Of a DNA stretch of 64,000 nucleotides, positions 4,708 to 55,487 are shown in pieces. The notes beneath the pieces are model-generated. The model was given only the letters and a program-made list of their open reading frames with translations, searched no databases and was not told the DNA's origin. Positions within the stretch are counted from its first letter, which is position 1. The number at the start of each line of letters is the position of its first letter. A program made the translations under genes and the position numbers. The stretch spans positions 3,634 to 67,633 of the forward strand of contig WJJZ01000001.1 of assembly GCA_014729395.1 (NCBI GenBank). Direction: 5' to 3'. Source of the DNA: Candidatus Magasanikiibacteriota bacterium (GTDB lineage: Bacteria > Patescibacteriota > Patescibacteriia > Magasanikbacterales > UBA922).

Positions 4708-7700
4708 ATAGTATTGGGGGTATCATTTAAAACATCACAAAAACCGGTTTGAATTTGCTGAACAGGACTAATTCTCCAATCAAATTCCAAATTTTCCGAT
4801 TTCCATTCAAGATTGAATACATGCCAGTATCTTGCCGTTGGGTTGGATGATGACTGTGCACTCTTTATTGAAAAACTAGTAATCGGTTTGTAAACGGAGT
4901 GAGCTGGTACTTGTCCTTCGTGAAAAGTGTAAATATCCACAGTTAAATTGCTGTTTGTAAAATTGCTGATTGGTACCTCTCCCAAACTACCAATAGCTTC
5001 AACAAAAAACGCAATAGGTGGTCTCACTTCAAAAGTCCTGTTCAGATAATACCAACCATTGGTATCGATAGTCATGGCTTGAATAAACGTCTTGTCCAAA
5101 CTTTGAACCGGGTGTACAAAAAGCAATCTTGATTGATCACGTGTAAAATCATCACTTGGTCTGATAACTGTATATGGATTACATGCTGTTGGCCAGAAAT
5201 ATCTACCATGATTAAATTCTGTAGAATTATATTCAGCTTCTTCCTTATATGTAGTTTGCTCCATCTGATCGCAATACCATGGATCGGCGGGATTGGTGGT
5301 ATCGGAAATCGCTTCACTTAGATTCTTTATAAGAGCCTTTCTTTCTTCCAGATCTTCGGCGTTTTTGTCAAAAATCTGACTATACAAAACACCGTTAAAA
5401 ATTACATTACGATCATCTTCTTTATCTGTCCAACGCACAACCACCCTGAATACATTGTCAGGAACTGCCGGAGAAACGATATATTCGTGTTCAATCGGCC
5501 CTGTTTGTCCGCTAACCGGATAGCTGAAAAGGTCGCCGTAGTTTAATAATTGATCGCGATTATAGATATTTAGATTTACTGCGGGAGATTTTTTAATCTC
5601 AAGCGGTGAAAAATATAATTTATACTCATCAACACACAAAGCGTCGCTCTCAAGCCTAACCTTTTCACCGGATAAATTTTCACTACTACCTGAATTCCTA
5701 AGTGCTTCTTGAATTGTGTAGTCAAAATATATTGGAGTGCTGCCATTGCCGGTTGATCCCAATCTGCGCCAGCCAAAAGTATACCCGTCTTCAATACCAT
5801 CTCTGTCCGGGTCATACCAACGATACATCAAAACATGTTGGAGTCCGTCAAAATTTCTTTCCGGAAAAGCCCACCAATTTGTTCCTTCACCAAGAGTACT
5901 TTGCGGAACGCCACCACCTGTAATCGGATTTAGAAAGGCCATATTGGCAATGGTATTTATATTTTGATCCAAGCTGGCTGTACACTCAACGCAATTATTA
6001 TCCAATTTCTGACAACTTTCGCTACAGCTCACACTCCCCAAATCAGTACAGGTTAAGACATTGTTCTCATTACACAATGTATAGTTTGGTAAACATTCAC
6101 CATAAAATTGGACATCGTTTGTTATGTAATTCGATATATTATTACTATAATCCTCCTCTTTTAAGTCCAAGATCAAACCATCATCAGGAGCAAGGCAAGT
6201 TGTTTGGTCATTTGGGTCACAGATAATACTCGGATCCTCTGAACAGTGATAACCCAACATGTCTTCTAAATCCGCTTCTGAAGATAAATGGACAAGTGAC
6301 AGAACAAGCAGTTTGCAAGCAATCACTTTTGGATCGTCAAGATCTTCATCCAGCCAACTACAGATCGCATTCATATTATCTTCCGAATTTTCGAGCATTT
6401 CAGGATAGTACTGAACCCTAACCTTTCCATCGTTTAGTCTTCTGACAAAACTCGGGGCTACAGTCTGTGAACATACTTCGTCAGACACGATAATGTTTTC
6501 CCCAACAGTTTCACATTTTTCTCCATTTTCAGCTTGAACAATACCATCACCACAATAAGCGGTCGGTTCTCTAAACAATACATTTCTACAATCAGCCGAA
6601 CAATATGTACAATTTTGTCCATATTCAGGCTGACACGGAATACCATTCTGTGAGCCCAGATCACAAGCTTCCATTACCCCTTCGTTGTTTGGAGCCTGAA
6701 CCACATTATCACCACATGCACCGATATTTTCCGCTTCCACCCCTTGTTGAACAGGTCCTTCATATACACCCTCGCATTCTACCCTGTAACCATTGGAATT
6801 GGTAATATTTAGCTCAACACTGCATGAGTTATTACAATCATACCCACTACCATAACACCTGGTATAATAAACCAAAATATTAAATTCATCCAATTTACCG
6901 TATCGCTCCAAAACCTGATCACATGAAAGTCCATAACTGTGACAAATTTGATTACCGGTAATATTGCTTGTACATTCCGGGATAGCTTGACCCTCATAGT
7001 CCCCACTGGAACTGTCAAACACGTCGTAATTTCCTCTACTTATGTAAATATCGGTTGAATTATCTGCTGTAGAAGTTGTTAGATAAGGGCCTGCATTGTA
7101 ACAAGAATTATTCTCTCTTTCGCACTGCTCACTACAACCATCAAAATTATCTAGGTTGCCATCGTCACAGGTTTCATAATCAGGCTGGACTAAATTGTCT
7201 CCACAGTATCCACCATAACCTTGACAATCAATTGAGCAAGATTTTTCCATTTCAAAAGCATATTGCCCCCAAAGAGGTCTCATAGACCAATCACAAAACT
7301 CATATTCTTCTTGAAAAACTGTATCTCCGCAATAACCAAGTCCGGACAAAGCATTACAATCTTCACCACAATGACCATAAGAACCGTTTAATTCCCCATC
7401 ATCACACAACTCTCCTTGATCAACCACTCCGTTGCCGCAAATACCAACACCGGGGCATTCTGTTGGTTGCCAAGTGCACTGATCCGTACATATTCGACAA
7501 TTAGCCGCATCAACACGTCCGGGTGGATCACAGCTCTCACCTGCATTGACCACAGAATCACCGCACACCCCTCCTTCGGGAGTATGAGTTTGATTTGGCA
7601 CACAATATGGCTCTGTATCAAATCTACCCCTATTGATACCATATCTGTCTATTATAGAGTTATTTAAGCTTAAAAATTCAAGCGGGGCATGGAAAATATA

Positions 7701-27011: not shown

Positions 27012-27088
27012 CGGGGTGTAGCTCAGTTGGCTAGAGCGCGCGCATGGGGTGCGTGAGGTCGCTGGTTCAAGTCCAGTCATCCCGACCA
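27012..27088 (+). tRNA. tRNA-Pro (anticodon GGG), CCA encoded
   Basis: CGGGGTG-TA-GCTC-AGTTGGCTAG-AGC-G-CGCGC-ATGGGGT-GCGTG-AGGTC-GCTGG-TTCAAGT-CCAGT-CATCCCG-A-CCA. Confidence 0.85.
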
Positions 27089-27089
27089 G

Positions 27090-27166
27090 CGGGATATGGC
27101 CTAATTGGCTAGGGCGCACGCTTCGGGTGCGTGAGGTTCCGGGTTCAAGTCCCGGTATCCCGACCA
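27090..27166 (+). tRNA. tRNA-Pro (anticodon CGG), CCA encoded
   Basis: CGGGATA-TG-GCCT-AATTGGCTA-GGGC-G-CACGC-TTCGGGT-GCGTG-AGGTT-CCGGG-TTCAAGT-CCCGG-TATCCCG-A-CCA. Starts 1 nt after the CCA of the preceding tRNA. Confidence 0.85.
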
Positions 27167-27663: not shown

Positions 27664-28941
27664 TCACACCAGACGAAGTTCCGCCTGATGAAACAGATCT
27701 ACGGCCTGATCAAATGTTGGGGCAATGGCAATCAAGCCGGCTTTACCAAGACCCAGTGAAATGAGCGGGGTGTGATACATGAGCACACCCGAAGTGGAAT
27801 TACCATGATAAAACAGATCATCCAGCAGGGCACGTGCCTCGCTGTAGTCTTTGATCGACTTTCTTACCGAGACATTAGCCATTGCGACTACCACACCGGA
27901 GTCAAAATTTTCGACCACTGACCGGTGAACACCGGCCGTGTACATAGAATTCGACGTCCGTGCGTTGCATTCCAACAGAAAAATGTCATCATACTCTGTT
28001 AGAAGCAAGTCTAGACCAATCTTACCACGATAACCTGAATTCTGTACTACGGACATAAGCGGCATTGTCAACTCAACCGCCCTTTTCACAATCAACCATG
28101 ATAACGGACCCAAGTCACTACCGAAAGAGCCGACAATATTACCGCGGTGAGGAATACCACGTTTTAAGTCTTCCATCTGAACCAATTCCCCCATCGGCAC
28201 ACCATCCAAGACTTGTAGAGAGAAGCAATGCAAATGAATATCCATATCACTGATTTCAAAAACCAAAGAAAATGGATAGTGCTCATAAGCCTCTTCTACA
28301 ATCAATCGACTCGAATTTAACTCAGAGAGATCTCTATTTGATAAATCCTCTCCGGGGCCCAAAAAAACCATACCTTCTGATGAAGCCGCATCCGGAACTT
28401 TTACCACGAAACCGTGCGCATTACAGCGTTTACGAAGAGCAGTTCCCAATTCACCGTTTCCCGAATTCACGACCCGATGCTCCGGAAACAAATGAGACAA
28501 ACCCTTGCTAGAGGAGACCTTTCGCAAGTAATCTTTTCTACCCCAAATGTCGGCTATTTCCCTCCGCGGTGTGCAGGTGGTATCCCAGTCGAGCTCGGCG
28601 TCTCGAATAAAATTTTCAGCAGCCGGAGAAGCGCAAAAAAGATCTATCTTCGAGCCCTTGGAAACCACTCCCCTTACCATTCTCAAACTTTTAGAATCAG
28701 ACAAGACCCCGCCGTAAAGACCGGTGCCATTTACCGGCACTTCCACAACTTTAACTTTGGAACTTTTTACACCTGCTTCTTCATAATCACGCAGAAGCAG
28801 GGAAAGTTCCTCGTCACCGGAAGGCACCACTACTGTTCTACCGCCCAACAAGAGAGCGCGATAGCAGTACCTCTCTATGCCATCCACACGCTGTAGGTGC
28901 GGAAAGTCACCCGCAACATCGTGTATCGTCACGTTTCCCAT
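27664..28941 (-). CDS. ATP-grasp fold ligase (carboxylate-amine/peptide ligase type), elevated GC
   Basis: VVKVPDAASSEGMVFL (ATP-grasp P-loop-like) and IGLDLLLTEYDDIFLLECNAR (E-x-N-x-R catalytic motif). GGAGG Shine-Dalgarno 5 nt before the ATG. GC is visibly higher than the flanks. Confidence 0.6.
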   Translation of the reverse strand: MGNVTIHDVAGDFPHLQRVDGIERYCYRALLLGGRTVVVPSGDEELSLLLRDYEEAGVKSSKVKVVEVPVNGTGLYGGVLSDSKSLRMVRGVVSKGSKIDLFCASPAAENFIRDAELDWDTTCTPRREIADIWGRKDYLRKVSSSKGLSHLFPEHRVVNSGNGELGTALRKRCNAHGFVVKVPDAASSEGMVFLGPGEDLSNRDLSELNSSRLIVEEAYEHYPFSLVFEISDMDIHLHCFSLQVLDGVPMGELVQMEDLKRGIPHRGNIVGSFGSDLGPLSWLIVKRAVELTMPLMSVVQNSGYRGKIGLDLLLTEYDDIFLLECNARTSNSMYTAGVHRSVVENFDSGVVVAMANVSVRKSIKDYSEARALLDDLFYHGNSTSGVLMYHTPLISLGLGKAGLIAIAPTFDQAVDLFHQAELRLV

Positions 28942-29041: not shown

Positions 29042-29824
29042 CTACGAAATTTGAATAGCTTTTTTCTGTTTAATTTTTTCTTTCTGTAATTGTTGCTCAC
29101 TAACATAATCTACAAATAGATGAAGAACTTTTGCCGCTTCAGGGGTGTCTTTAAAGTCTTCAAGCAGTTCTTCCATAGTTGTACCTTTGGGTACATAATT
29201 GGGAAATAATTTCAGTCTGGCTCTCATTCTTTCTTGATTTAATTCGGGATGAAACATCAAACCCCAGGCGGGTTTATTTTTTAATCGAAAAGCCTGACAC
29301 GATACTTTTTTCGTTTTTGCCAACTGTAGCAAATGCGAAGGTAAATTAATTGGAGTGGTTTTATGACCAAATTGTGCTAAAAAAGTCGACTTTAACCGAC
29401 TGAAAATCGGATCTTTTTCCGAGTCAGGCAGCAATTCAACTTGAAACGTTCCAACTTCTTGAAATTTTTCATCAGTACTAAGATCAGCGCCTTGATGAAA
29501 TGATAATAAATGCCCACCATAACAAACACCCATTAATGGAATATTTTTTTCAAGTATAGAATCAATAAAACGAAGAGTATTTCTTATCCATTCATTATTT
29601 TTTACCTCTTCGGTACTCAAATAAAATTGTCCACTGCCACCCATTATAACACCGGCTACATCTTCCGGAATAAATTCGGGCAGCTCGCCTTTCGCTGCGT
29701 TTACATAAAACAGATCATATCCACAAGCTTTTAATTCTTCATTATAACAATCCTGCTCTTGGGGCTCGGATGCGTCTGTGCGAAACTGCACAATATAAAT
29801 CTTCTTTAAAATTTCATCGGGCAT
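29042..29824 (-). CDS. class I glutamine amidotransferase domain protein (GuaA-like GATase1)
   Basis: MGVCYGGHLL catalytic Cys motif and LMFHPE His-Glu motif. Confidence 0.7.
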   Translation of the reverse strand: MPDEILKKIYIVQFRTDASEPQEQDCYNEELKACGYDLFYVNAAKGELPEFIPEDVAGVIMGGSGQFYLSTEEVKNNEWIRNTLRFIDSILEKNIPLMGVCYGGHLLSFHQGADLSTDEKFQEVGTFQVELLPDSEKDPIFSRLKSTFLAQFGHKTTPINLPSHLLQLAKTKKVSCQAFRLKNKPAWGLMFHPELNQERMRARLKLFPNYVPKGTTMEELLEDFKDTPEAAKVLHLFVDYVSEQQLQKEKIKQKKAIQIS

Positions 29825-30047
29825 AATTTTTCTATTATTGATTAAAATTAATTTAATTTTAAACCGCCTATTCTTTAGGCGGCAGTGTTTCCAAGTATTT
29901 TTTGTTTTTTCTAAATACGCAAATCACTGCCCCCGGGAACTAGGAGTATAATATAAATAAATACAATCCATTGTGGCATGTGATTTTGCATATTAAAATT
30001 ATTATACTAATTTCTTGATTCACTTTCAATACTTGATTGTGGATATA

Positions 30048-30068
30048 GTTTTAGTGTGGTAAAACACT
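30048..30068. repeat. 21-bp palindromic direct repeat, left copy (GTTTTAGTGTGGTAAAACACT)
   Basis: 20/21 identical to 30654-30674. Internal inverted arms AGTGT/ACACT and GTTTTA/TAAAAC. Confidence 0.6.
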
Positions 30069-30151
30069 CTTCCGCTTCACCTGCTCACAATAATTTTATG
30101 AACAAATTGCGCGGACCCTTCAGACTTGGCCGCGCCATACTGAAGGGCCGT

Positions 30152-30364
30152 TTAACCAGGCCGGACTGTATTATTCTGCATGGAATAATCCAACCCGACG
30201 ATCACTCGATCCCAACTGTCCAATTGGGCCTCGAGTACTCTAGCCTCCTTTGTGTCCTCTCTTTCCCAGGCACTCAAAAGTGCCTCTTCAACCCTCCTCA
30301 TTTCCTCACCTACTTCTTTTAGCTGTTGGGCATAAAAGTGATAGGCTTTTCCATATTTAGTCAT
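30152..30364 (-). CDS. small hypothetical protein (70 aa), elevated GC, own promoter and strong SD
   Basis: MTKYGKAYHFYAQQLKEVGEEMRRVEEALLSAWEREDTKEARVLEAQLDSWDRVIVGLDYSMQNNTVRPG. AAGGAGG 6 nt upstream of the ATG. An overlapping plus-strand ORF (30056..30322) cannot be excluded. Confidence 0.35.
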   Translation of the reverse strand: MTKYGKAYHFYAQQLKEVGEEMRRVEEALLSAWEREDTKEARVLEAQLDSWDRVIVGLDYSMQNNTVRPG

Positions 30365-30500
30365 GTTGCACCTCCTTGTTTTTTCGAACGATTATCCGTT
30401 CGTGAAAACCCTCCCGGCTTTCACGAAAAGATAATTCGCCTCAAATTAAAACCATCCTGGTCTTCTCAGGATGGTTTACTTATAATTTTTTTATGCTCTT

Positions 30501-30529
30501 TATATATACGCATACTTTGCTTTTGTCAA
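30501..30529 (-). promoter_or_regulatory. near-consensus sigma70 promoter (TTGACA-N17-TATATA) for the small high-GC ORF
   Basis: The minus-strand reading is TTGACAAAAGCAAAGTATGCGTATATATA. Confidence 0.45.
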
Positions 30530-30653
30530 GTAAACCATCCTCGATGCCGGAATTAGGTTAATCACAATATTCATCACAAAATATGCCTTCCAGCTGAGGT
30601 TGCCTGCATAAAAGCGAATTGTATGAGTAAAATTATTCATAATTTTTTCTTCA

Positions 30654-30674
30654 TGTTTTAGTGTAGTAAAACAC
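30654..30674. repeat. 21-bp palindromic direct repeat, right copy (GTTTTAGTGTAGTAAAACACT)
   Basis: See 30048-30068. The two copies flank ~600 bp of higher-GC DNA. Confidence 0.6.
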
Positions 30675-30739
30675 TAACAGATTGTCAACAGATTTATCCA
30701 CAACTACACAGTAACAAAACAACCTAACGCCTTCAATAA

Positions 30740-31219
30740 TTACTCCCTTTCATCCTCCATGTAAACATGAAGGTACTCGGTTTTATCGTAATCAAATATT
30801 TCTTCTTCTTTAAAAAATCTTGGGACTTCTTGTTTAGCGGTATCAACCGAATCCGAGCAATGGACTACATTGCACATACCCATTGCTAAATCCCCTCTAA
30901 TGGTACCACCATCGGCTTCACCTGCATTTGTAACGCCGGCTATCAAACGTACGGCTGCGACTGCATTTTTACCCTCGGCACAAACCACTACCACAGGAGA
31001 AGATTTCATAAATTCTTCCAATCCCGGATAAAAAGGTTTTTCAACATGATGAGCATAATGTTCACGAAGTTTTTCTGTATCCAAAATCATCATTTTTAAA
31101 CCCACAACTTTCAATCCTTTCATCTCCAATCTTTTAAGAATCTCACCAACTAAGCTGCGTTGTACAGCATCCGGTTTTAAAATAAGAAGAGTTTTTTCAT
31201 AAATGCCTTCAAAATTCAT
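30740..31219 (-). CDS. ndk: nucleoside diphosphate kinase
   Basis: LKPDAVQR, GTIRGD and NVVHCSDS (active-site His) motifs. Confidence 0.9.
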   Translation of the reverse strand: MNFEGIYEKTLLILKPDAVQRSLVGEILKRLEMKGLKVVGLKMMILDTEKLREHYAHHVEKPFYPGLEEFMKSSPVVVVCAEGKNAVAAVRLIAGVTNAGEADGGTIRGDLAMGMCNVVHCSDSVDTAKQEVPRFFKEEEIFDYDKTEYLHVYMEDERE

Positions 31220-31423
31220 ATAATTTGCTTTAATTTGTTAAAAAGTTTGGGTAATTATAGCGAAAAAGAGGGTGTTTGTCAAGGAAATCATGTCAAAGTC
31301 TATTTTTATCAAAAACCCCGCACGGACGAACCAATGCGGGGGTTTGGGGGTTGTGGCCAAAAATTGCAGCGAGGCGTCCCGATTTAGTCGGGACCAAAGA
31401 TCAATTTCAAGGACACCAAGCAA

Positions 31424-31912
31424 CTACTTGCGACGGAGAACCCGATCGTAGACGCCCCAGACGTCGTCGAGCCAGTACCAGTCCCGAACCCACTCCTCGA
31501 CGTTGTTCCAGTAAACGCGACCGGCGTGCTCGGGATGGTCGGGAAGACGCCAGTCCTGGATCACGAAGACGAACTTGCGGAACTCGGACGGGATGTCCTG
31601 CCGGTTTTTGAACAGGTACCGGCCTTCGTCCTCTCCGCAAGGGTGTCCAGTCATCGCGTCCGTTCGCTTGATCATCGTGTGACCGACGACCGAGATCTCG
31701 CCGTCCCGCAGGAAGGCGTGTACCTCGTACGAACGGTTCTCGGGACCGATGTTCTCCATCGTGAGGATGTCAGGCTTGCCACTCTTGAGAGCGGCACGCA
31801 GAACGGTCGCCAGCCGTCCCTGATCCTCGATAAAGGTTTGTTTCTCGCTGGTTGTAAGATCGTCAGGCAGTTGCCTGATGACCGATGCGACGAACTCTCT
31901 GTCCTGATTCAT
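31424..31912 (-). CDS. hypothetical protein encoded by a ~60% GC segment (probable horizontal acquisition)
   Basis: Continuous ORF. Start assigned to the internal Met (MNQDREFVAS...) because AAGGAG lies 7 nt upstream. The ORF track extends it to 31981 into low-GC DNA. No confident family assignment. Confidence 0.5.
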   Translation of the reverse strand: MNQDREFVASVIRQLPDDLTTSEKQTFIEDQGRLATVLRAALKSGKPDILTMENIGPENRSYEVHAFLRDGEISVVGHTMIKRTDAMTGHPCGEDEGRYLFKNRQDIPSEFRKFVFVIQDWRLPDHPEHAGRVYWNNVEEWVRDWYWLDDVWGVYDRVLRRK

Positions 31913-32178
31913 TTTCTTTCTCCTTGGGCTTACCCCTTTGGGCTTACCCTGCTTTGGTCGAGAGAAATCCCCAACCTTCATTTGAATAACAATATTTTGT
32001 TAGTCAAAAGAAAGCAAGGAAAATCTATAACTAAAGAACAAATTTAACGCTTAATTATGGCATAAAAGTGCTAATTTGTCAAGCTACTTTATAATAATCA
32101 AAAATAAAAAATAGCTAAATTTAGCCATTTTTAATAACCAATCAGAATAAAATCCTGCGAACTGATCACTGTGAACTG

Positions 32179-53175: not shown

Positions 53176-53601
53176 AATTAAGATGAGCTAAGCGAGTCTT
53201 AATTGACCCTGAGCGAGTTCCGACGAAGTCGGAACGAGCCGAAGGGTTTTAATATTCGCTAAGCTCAATGATGTTAAAACTGTTTAAAACAATTTTAACA
53301 TGAGAATTTTATCCCTTTAATTAAAAAGGTTTATTTTAAGTACTTTTTTTTGAAATAGACTCTGGATGTTTTTGTCACATTTCTAATGTGAACCTTACTT
53401 ATGTATTGCATATTTCAATTTGATTGGTTTTTATGCAATTGTATATTGGTTGCTAAATTGTAAAGAATTGATTCCTTCCAAGAAAAAAAGAGGAACCTGC
53501 TTTACTTCCTGAAAACTATCAAGAAATAAATTTGGTTACTCTTTTCCTAGTATCCCATTTTGGGGACTGGGGAAAACATAAATTGTTGCATTAGTAAAAA
53601 G

Positions 53602-54536: not shown

Positions 54537-55487
54537 TTACTTCTCAAACAAAAACTGCCCAACTCCATTACATTCTTTAGCGATAAATTTAAAATTTCTC
54601 TCCTCAAAAAAATTAACCAAACCGTCAGCATCATAAACCCTAATGGTAATAAGATCAACAATTGTACCGGGCAATAAGGTTACGGTTCTACCATCAAAAC
54701 AAACCACTGTCTTTTTTAAAATCTTAAAGCGAAAAATAAACTTTAAATCATTTAAATTTTCTTCTTTAATCATAGAAAGAAACATCTCCCCATTTTCATA
54801 AGGTATACCAATCTCTTTCAAAGGGCGGAAATAAAAATCACGTCTTACATCTTGATCCAGATACTTCAAGTATCTTTCGAACAATAACATATCACCTTTT
54901 TCATTAATTTCACTTCTAACAGCCACTTCCATCCACAGTTTGTCTCCTTTTTCCAGCATATCGTACAAAATATCAGCCATATAGTCTTGCTCCACATTAC
55001 CAAAAGTACAGCCCAAAAAAGCATAAACCTTTACATCAAAGTCAGCCAATTCATGCTTTAATTTTTTTATAAAATCCTCTTTGCTGAAATCCGCACACAA
55101 TAATTTATAATCAAATTTACTTTCAGACAAATTCTTTTCAGCTAATTCAATCATACCTTCAGAAGAGTCCACCCCAAATAATTTAAAATTAAAACCGTCT
55201 TTATAAAATCTTCCAAATATATCTTTTTCCTTTCCGGCATTTCCACAACCTAAACTTATTACAGCAACTTTTTTATCCTTGTTTTTGCAGCAATTTCTTC
55301 TTAAAAACGGATAATACTTTTCCTTTAGCGCCAAAAGGTGGGGTTTTTTTGCAGGAGAAAGATCATAATACATACAAGCACCTTTATCCACATAAAAAGC
55401 CGTTTGCTTAAAAACTTTAAATTCCTTGAAATGCTTGTAAATTTCTTTTTTCAATTCCTGCTCAGAATTGAATTTGCTTATTTTCAT
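54537..55487 (-). CDS. SAM-dependent methyltransferase, EgtD-like (Methyltransf_33-type) by motif
   Basis: KVAVISLGCGNAGKE (motif I) and VYAFLGCTFGNVEQD resemble the histidine-Nalpha-methyltransferase family. Assignment is tentative. Confidence 0.4.
   Translation of the reverse strand: MKISKFNSEQELKKEIYKHFKEFKVFKQTAFYVDKGACMYYDLSPAKKPHLLALKEKYYPFLRRNCCKNKDKKVAVISLGCGNAGKEKDIFGRFYKDGFNFKLFGVDSSEGMIELAEKNLSESKFDYKLLCADFSKEDFIKKLKHELADFDVKVYAFLGCTFGNVEQDYMADILYDMLEKGDKLWMEVAVRSEINEKGDMLLFERYLKYLDQDVRRDFYFRPLKEIGIPYENGEMFLSMIKEENLNDLKFIFRFKILKKTVVCFDGRTVTLLPGTIVDLITIRVYDADGLVNFFEERNFKFIAKECNGVGQFLFEK

Follow-up and report, generated by a model that had tools for sequence, protein, structure and literature searches.

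The operators of HisR (YerC in Bacillus subtilis) are 20-bp palindromes with the consensus cacTTTAnnnnnnTAAAgtg, the flanking bases of which are lineage-specific; such sites are frequent upstream of hisR itself, and one of them has been validated in vitro (PMC9413887). The operators described in Firmicutes, Actinobacteria and Synergistetes share a TTTA-N6-TAAA core and lie in promoters or early transcribed regions (PMC9413887). The operator of Escherichia coli TrpR, which belongs to the same protein family, is likewise a palindrome that overlaps a promoter but differs in sequence (TGTAcTnGTnnACnAgTACA, quoted in PMC9413887). Here we analyze two copies of a palindromic 21-mer, considered as candidate operators of this type, in a 64-kb stretch of DNA (hereafter the window) from a metagenome-assembled genome of Candidatus Magasanikbacteria, where they flank a small transcription unit downstream of ndk. 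To our knowledge, almost nothing is known about transcriptional regulation in the Candidate Phyla Radiation (CPR), and none of these lineages has been cultured on its own. The window was compared with related loci and contigs, designated L001 and so on, including those of ~49 Magasanikbacteria species retrieved by an NDK search.

Palindromic 21-mers and their proposed link to YerC/HisR

The 21-mer GTTTTAGTGT(G/A)GTAAAACACT is found at positions 30048–30068 and 30655–30675 of the window, with the starts of the two copies 607 bp apart. As stated in the initial annotation, which placed the right copy one nucleotide too early (at 30654), the two are direct repeats identical in 20 of 21 positions. 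A search for further copies yielded none in the 64 kb at up to three mismatches (0.01 chance matches expected); there was no match to the 21-mer in 80 related loci and none to its motif in viral contigs. The internal palindromy attributed to each copy is partial, with 6–7-bp arms (TGTTTTA/TAAAACA), a 6-nucleotide (nt) spacer and an overlapping AGTGT/ACACT pair. The right copy contains, on the minus strand, the 20-bp palindrome TGTTTTA-CTACAC-TAAAACA, located over the -10 element of a promoter that we denote P1, and is a candidate YerC/HisR-type operator. The left copy, a second and slightly weaker version present in the window lineage only (it was not found in L001 or L081/82), has one mismatch to the palindrome, in an outer half-site, compared with none in the right copy. 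The single difference between the copies falls on the -10 hexamer, TACACT in the right copy being CACACT in the left one, so that the center of the latter reads CACA, not TACA. A site at 53272 with two mismatches was considered as a further operator copy and set aside, being a different palindrome that lies in the 16S leader.

A scan of metagenome contigs with a degenerate 21-mer gave six matches, three of them informative (L083, L085, and L088). In L083 and L085, the palindrome comes after a TTGACA-17-TATACT promoter and ahead of the start codon of a gene for a 94-amino acid (aa) YerC/YecD protein (TrpR family, PF01371), which is followed by hisS. In L088, it is part of the promoter that follows another yerC gene, 40 nt past the stop codon of that gene. 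Homologs of YerC are common in Patescibacteria, Magasanikbacteria included, and in the fetched contigs, CPR yerC heads the operon yerC-hisS-hisG-hisD-hisC-hisB-hisH. The motif (T/C)GTTTTA-nTACnn-TAAAACA is kept between the -10 element and the yerC start in four lineages (L083, L091, L095–97, and L102), which include a Magasanikbacteria (L091) and an Uhrbacteria (L102) assembly. Furthermore, the P1 palindrome of L001, the species closest to the window (87% identity between the NDK proteins), is identical in all 20 positions to the yerC site of L083. The more distant yerC gene of L099 has a different palindrome in the same position, which can be explained by the expectation that a regulator and its site evolve together. 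The other three matches (L084, L086, and L087) lie in unrelated contexts and were treated as chance or unrelated palindromes. The one in L084 (4026–4046) is an extended perfect palindrome with the same core, CAGTGTTTTACT-AC-AGTAAAACACTG, in an unrelated contig, and the one in L087 (322–342), ATGTTTTACT-AC-AGTAAAACAT, is directly upstream of an AbrB/MazE-like gene of a high-GC (guanine plus cytosine) organism.

Because the sites share the published core and geometry, and given the identity of the L001 palindrome with the yerC site of L083, we consider it probable that both 21-mers are operators of the YerC/HisR type, i.e., of a dimeric TrpR-family repressor, situated beside two tandem promoter–small open reading frame (ORF)–terminator units. 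Both copies are 20-bp palindromes with the TTTA-N6-TAAA core (no mismatch in the right one and one in the left one), and the same motif precedes yerC and the his genes in CPR relatives (L083, L091, L095–97, and L102), just as HisR sites often precede hisR. The operator alternative mentioned in the initial annotation is thus supported, through the placement of the palindrome over the P1 -10 element and its association with yerC-his operons.

Several observations weigh against this interpretation. The flanks are tGT...ACa instead of the cac...gtg of the HisR consensus, although this is a weak criterion given that the consensus is lineage-specific. The adjacent genes are not those for histidine biosynthesis or transport but small ORFs, a 70-aa protein and a class-I amidotransferase-like gene, and there is no yerC gene within the window. 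The left copy is located upstream of a -35 element, which is not the classic position for repression, and its identity with the right copy extends into the spacer, as would also result from a recent duplication with no necessary function. Finally, Patescibacteria fall outside the coverage of the published HisR survey (PMC9413887), and CPR YerC is a predicted binder of these sites.

The duplication could indeed be the whole explanation: the right copy would be no more than the central part of a conserved promoter, from which local duplication or gene conversion of 21 nt produced a functionless left copy. The identity of the copies across the 6-nt spacer and the flanks exceeds what a shared binding site needs, the relatives L001 and L081/82 do not have the left copy, the sole difference alters the hexamer that serves as the -10 element in the right copy, and there is no -35 element upstream of the left one. 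However, in the yerC promoters, the palindrome lies downstream of the -10 element and so is not simply -10 context; the center nTACAn is kept across operators of different species, which explains part of the spacer identity; and the left copy sits directly beside a second promoter with its own DnaA-box-like 9-mer (see below), not in a random place. We view this explanation as rather unlikely.

Lower still we place the possibility that the sites are operators for a protein other than YerC/HisR, either another palindrome-binding regulator or the product of the unit itself. The lack of yerC in the window and the nature of the downstream genes would fit such a regulator, and the similar palindrome next to the AbrB/MazE-like gene in L087, from an unrelated organism, implies that similar palindromes can serve other proteins. 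Against this stand the complete identity of the L001 promoter site with a site upstream of yerC and the fact that the palindrome adjoins yerC in two independent contexts. As for the unit's own product, the 70-aa protein was not found in species that keep the palindrome, and its predicted fold is not of a DNA-binding type.

A resident unit downstream of ndk

On the minus strand, the ndk stop codon is followed by the 9-mer TGTGGATAA (30702–30694; equivalent to TTATCCACA, a perfect match to the DnaA-box consensus), 5 nt, TTGACA (30688–30683), 17 nt and TACACT (30665–30660). The two hexamers, with 10 of 12 consensus matches, constitute P1 (30660–30688), which is conserved in position downstream of ndk in most Magasanikbacteria. 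At ~31 Magasanikbacteria loci, a perfect TTATCCACA box, in either orientation, lies 4–8 nt upstream of the -35 element; in L001–L048/L065, the ndk-downstream boxes are found ~10–230 nt past the ndk stop codon, and in 500 kb of related sequence, 45 exact boxes were observed compared with 5.7 expected. A box that is perfect or one to two bases off is also located ~8 nt upstream of the -35 element of CPR yerC-his promoters (L083, L091, L095, L099, and L102). The box is not a general promoter feature of the window: among 20 TTGACn-17-TAnnnT sites, only those of the two units discussed here have a box beside a good promoter, and the other exact box in the window, at 55384, is inside a coding sequence. 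The palindrome over the P1 -10 element is shared by L001, L007, L010, and L030, and close variants of it are found in L046 and L022; at up to one mismatch, the first four species have the only promoter-positioned matches in the 500 kb.

Promoters that bear DnaA boxes are exemplified by dnaA autoregulation and by B. subtilis sda. The resemblance to these lies in a perfect TTATCCACA beside a sigma-70-type promoter of a very small gene, whereas the P1 unit has a single box, the box occurs in either orientation 4–8 nt from the -35 element across loci, and it is also found at CPR yerC promoters; the link to DnaA is a likeness of sequence.

The initial annotation had assigned the unit a near-consensus promoter at 30501–30529. 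A TTGACA-17-TATATA site is present there on the minus strand, but it fails the -10 rule of our scan, is inside the 3′ end of a 46-aa ORF and is not conserved in L001, so that its promoter role is doubtful, the conserved promoter being P1; transcripts from this site would not contain segment A (see below) and would meet the terminator. A five-codon mini-ORF, ATG AAG AAA AAA TTA TGA (30637–30654), starts ~6 nt past the P1 -10 element and ends in a TGA that shares bases with the start codon of the 46-aa ORF (ATGA). The mini-ORF may provide a leaderless start with coupling to the 46-aa ORF, or the arrangement may be coincidental.

The segment delimited by the 21-mers is conserved at this site in relatives. 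In L001, the region from ndk to the amidotransferase gene contains a P1-type promoter, a 45-aa ORF, a terminator hairpin, AAGGAGG, a 69-aa homolog of the 70-aa protein and the conserved 3′ hairpin. In L081 and L082, the small ORF, the terminator, the Shine-Dalgarno (SD) sequence and the 70-aa-type ORF follow in the same order, with the amidotransferase gene directly after them. Compared with these loci, the window carries ~200 extra bases to the left, beginning with the left 21-mer. Given that L001 and L081/82 keep the enclosed unit without the left repeat, the 21-mers do not mark the ends of an insertion or deletion; the intervening DNA is an old resident of the site, and the right copy is presumably ancestral. 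A search for closer relatives through the amidotransferase protein returned none above 65% identity, and L089 and L090 have a different context. The elevated GC content that had been noted for the segment is real, with 41.8% between the repeats compared with 37.6% in the window, but modest (the interval 30400–30700 is at 32–38%), and was traced to the coding sequence of the 70-aa protein (46%) together with GC-rich hairpins.

A role of the 21-mers at the RNA level, as hairpins that signal, for example, processing or termination, is improbable. Each copy can form a 5–7-bp stem and the left one is situated toward the 3′ end of the transcript of the 70-aa ORF, but the predicted hairpins have low stability without significance (-3.9 and -6.6 kcal/mol, z about -1.7), the right copy is upstream of the predicted P1 transcription start, and strong dedicated hairpins already flank both ORFs. 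The least probable explanation, the main one of the initial annotation, in which the repeats are att-like sites or target-site duplications around a mobile mini-cassette, can appeal to direct repeats that enclose an ORF with almost no homologs and to the slightly raised GC content, but is refuted by comparison with the relatives, where the enclosed unit occupies the same site without the left repeat and the promoter to which the right repeat belongs is also conserved where the 70-aa ORF is lacking, with neither a recombinase among the flanking genes nor a match in viral contigs to speak for mobility. Integron cassettes, elements similar to miniature inverted-repeat transposable elements and att-flanked islands also have short direct repeats with dyad symmetry around a small gene; this locus differs from them in having no recombinase, no empty site and no other copies, and in the retention of its content in relatives that have no second repeat.

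Small ORFs, terminators, and the 70-aa protein

The 46-aa ORF (30500–30640, minus strand) has no SD sequence and belongs to a family found downstream of ndk, with homologs in L001 (45 aa), in L081 (partial) and downstream of ndk in at least 25 species; the characteristic G-V/M-x-Y motif of this family is RMVY in the window. The hairpin that had been noted at 30449–30480 is present, spans 30449–30479 and is an intrinsic terminator, AAACCATCCTG-AGAAGAC-CAGGATGGTTT with a T-rich tail (minus strand), that starts 22 nt past the small-ORF stop codon. L001, L081 and ~20 other species have retained this terminator with altered stem sequences. In 23 species, a strong intrinsic terminator is located 13–26 nt past the small-ORF stop codon and its 3′ arm is nearly identical to the ORF segment at the G-V/M-x-Y motif; therefore, this segment can pair with the 5′ arm of the terminator. 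In the window, the respective segment A (GAGGATGGTTTAC; 30530–30542, minus strand), inside the 46-aa ORF, is identical in 10 of 11 positions to the terminator 3′ arm and complementary to the 5′ arm, and is a possible antiterminator. The pairing between segment and arm is species-specific, with a mean duplex energy of -15.1 kcal/mol for the own ORF compared with -11.0 kcal/mol for those of other species (permutation p < 1e-4). In the minimum-free-energy fold of the window leader, 30542–30530 pairs with 30479–30467, i.e., the antiterminator is favored, and the stability of this fold is unusually high (z = -5.7).

The locus thus has a short ORF right after the promoter, an intrinsic terminator close behind it and an alternative antiterminator pairing that overlaps the ORF and is supported by covariation, and we interpret the 46-aa ORF with its terminator as a putative attenuator-like element. 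Under the simplest reading, translation through segment A would let the terminator form, whereas in the absence of translation, transcription would read through into the gene for the 70-aa protein. There is no regulatory codon run in the ORFs of the window, L001, and L081. A Cys/Gly-rich tail, with 3–6 Cys among the final 16 codons, terminates the ORF in 16 relatives. Because these Cys codons come after the antiterminator segment, and because Cys-rich small ORFs also occur in some species that do not have this segment, a functional Cys-rich peptide is possible. In species without the operator, the start codon is 8–12 nt past the -10 element, making the mRNA effectively leaderless. The family in L004–L065 (e.g., L005 2745–2927 and L015 6776–6949) consists of ORFs of 42–70 codons with a hydrophobic N-terminal part, the G-V/M-x-Y motif and a Cys/Gly/acidic tail such as CCGGGGCGCGGKGNC, on near-leaderless mRNAs with a terminator after each ORF. 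The tail looks like a metallothionein or a poly-Cys leader peptide, and the 46-aa ORF of the window is a tail-less member of the family.

The element is similar to the classic leader-peptide attenuators (trpL, hisL, and ilvL) in having a short ORF right after the promoter and an alternative RNA pairing that involves this ORF. With the mycobacterial leaderless polycysteine short ORFs (bioRxiv 10.1101/834739), it shares the little or no leader and, in most relatives, a Cys run near the 3′ end. Unlike both, it is built of three segments, with the Cys codons placed after the antiterminator segment and before the terminator, and the window copy is without a Cys run. In the mycobacterial system, what is controlled is translation of the gene that follows and not an intrinsic terminator (bioRxiv 10.1101/834739). 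A further difference from known attenuators is that the downstream genes vary between species; in other species, most of the ORFs that come after the small ORF look spurious and show no conservation.

The 70-aa ORF (GF349_00155; 30152–30364, minus strand) was located correctly in the initial annotation, and the AAGGAGG noted there is also present; this strong SD sequence (30377–30371) ends 6 nt before the ATG, so that the two together span 30152–30377, and the product of the ORF is restricted to a small clade. The 5′ untranslated region contains a second hairpin (30391–30435, minus strand), and the ORF is followed by a 3′ hairpin (30113–30149, minus strand; z = -6.7), with compensatory changes in L081 and L001, and then by a conserved CCGCGCAATTTG. 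Across three lineages, the protein is kept at 69–70 aa with 15 invariant residues. Only the protein itself was found among 5.8 billion clustered proteins, and 1.84 billion representatives contained a sole homolog, 48% identical and encoded on L081 and L082. A profile search of all fetched loci detected it only in L001 and L081/82; it was not found in the remaining ~46 species, among them the ones that retain the palindrome. Structure prediction gave a simple hairpin of two helices (pLDDT, the predicted local distance difference test score, of 80.7) for which there was no PDB match below E = 1, and neither the 70-aa nor the 46-aa ORF had a match in Pfam, PHROGs, NCBIfam, or PADLOC. The idea that this protein is a toxin, an antitoxin or a DNA-binding protein finds no support in the predicted structure or in the family searches. 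It is not the cognate binder of the palindrome either, because L007, L010, L030, and L046 keep the palindrome without encoding a homolog. We consider it to be a clade-restricted protein with a predicted helical-hairpin fold.

The left 21-mer adjoins a second unit on the same strand. A ATATCCACA site (30038–30046), which matches the box in eight of nine positions, is 1 nt from the 21-mer and 8 nt upstream of the -35 element of promoter P3 (TTGAAA-17-TATAAT, 30001–30029; 11 of 12 matches). A putative 26-codon ORF, MQNHMPQWIVFIYIILLVPGGSDLRI (29911–29991), starts 9 nt past the -10 element and looks leaderless; ahead of the amidotransferase gene, a terminator-like hairpin follows, GCCGCCTA-AAGAA-TAGGCGGT with TTTAAAATT (29863–29883). 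Inside the ORF, GGGGGCAGTG (29934–29925) is complementary to CACTGCCGCC (29887–29878), which overlaps the 5′ arm of this terminator; on account of this complementarity, the second unit has the same design as the first. The center of the left palindrome is ~62 nt upstream of the predicted P3 start site, and we hypothesize that the left copy may act by excluding whatever binds the adjacent box, not by blocking the polymerase.

Genomic context and a possible regulatory module

The genes around the 21-mers, all on the minus strand, are uvrD (34191–32179), a GC-rich 185-aa ORF between uvrD and ndk (31981–31424), ndk (31219–30740), a class-I glutamine amidotransferase-like gene (29042–29824), the orthologs of which lie 3′ of the 70-aa ORF in L001 and L081, and, after it, an ATP-grasp-like gene (28941–27664). 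No recombinase or transposase is present among these neighbors. The uvrD-ndk pair is syntenic in most of the ~49 Magasanikbacteria species. No known RNA family from Rfam was detected in the segment, either at gathering thresholds over the whole window or at E ≤ 10 in 29800–30800.

The gap between uvrD and ndk is 60–100 nt in most relatives. In the window, it holds the 185-aa ORF, which has 57.7% GC (the 37.6% of the window being the reference) and no family match; this island (31424–31981) is flanked by 32-nt direct repeats (31252–31283 and 32052–32083) that are 75% identical and are both TTGACA-17-TATAAT-type promoters, an arrangement suggestive of gene acquisition with duplication of the ndk promoter. 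In many of the relatives among L003–L048, the genes for tRNA-Pro(GGG)/tRNA-Pro(CGG) share the strand of ndk and are located 1–2 kb downstream of it, whereas those of the window (27012–27166) are on the opposite strand, past the amidotransferase and ATP-grasp genes. This difference points to a local rearrangement. The amidotransferase-like gene gives a weak peptidase C26/gamma-glutamyl hydrolase signal, and the gene after it encodes a GCS2/YbdK/EgtA-like carboxylate-amine ligase in L001 (8130–9413) and an ATP-grasp-like protein in the window (27664–28941, 47.5% GC); the two genes possibly form a gamma-glutamyl ligase/hydrolase pair whose ligase member has been exchanged. After ndk in L008 (~6560–6780), L016, L025, and L040, there is a promoter followed by a ~180-nt structured RNA upstream of tRNA genes. 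Its long closing stem, GATCCTGCCAGACAGCAC...GTGCTGTCTGG..GCAGGATC, gives it a shape that resembles 6S RNA, and no Rfam family reached the threshold.

With the YerC/HisR-type operator as the preferred interpretation, the locus could operate as follows. A repressor of this type, presumably with histidine as the signal, would bind the right copy over the P1 -10 element and block RNA polymerase. When free, P1, with the perfect TTATCCACA box by its -35 element, would drive the small ORF with little or no leader. Pairing of the small-ORF segment with the terminator 5′ arm would then provide an attenuator that responds to translation and controls whether transcription proceeds into the 70-aa gene with its SD sequence. 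The left copy, beside the second box and the P3 unit ahead of the amidotransferase and ATP-grasp genes, might place both units under one repressor. More generally, we very tentatively propose that a previously undescribed module is located after ndk in Magasanikbacteria, consisting of a single perfect DnaA-box-like 9-mer by the -35 element, in some lineages a YerC/HisR operator over the -10 element, and a translation-switched, near-leaderless small ORF that usually has a poly-Cys/Gly tail. Signals from the replication initiator, from an amino-acid repressor and from translation would jointly gate lineage-variable cargo such as the 70-aa protein, and the window would carry two such modules in tandem.

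The analysis removes a false lead, in that it speaks against both a mobile nature of the segment, which is not a cassette of this kind, and a role of the 70-aa protein as its regulator, which the protein is not. If the interpretation proposed here is correct, the locus would provide a concrete YerC/HisR repressor–operator pair for CPR and would extend the YerC/HisR regulon beyond histidine genes, and it would represent a conserved small-ORF attenuator with a strikingly conserved DnaA-box-like promoter element.

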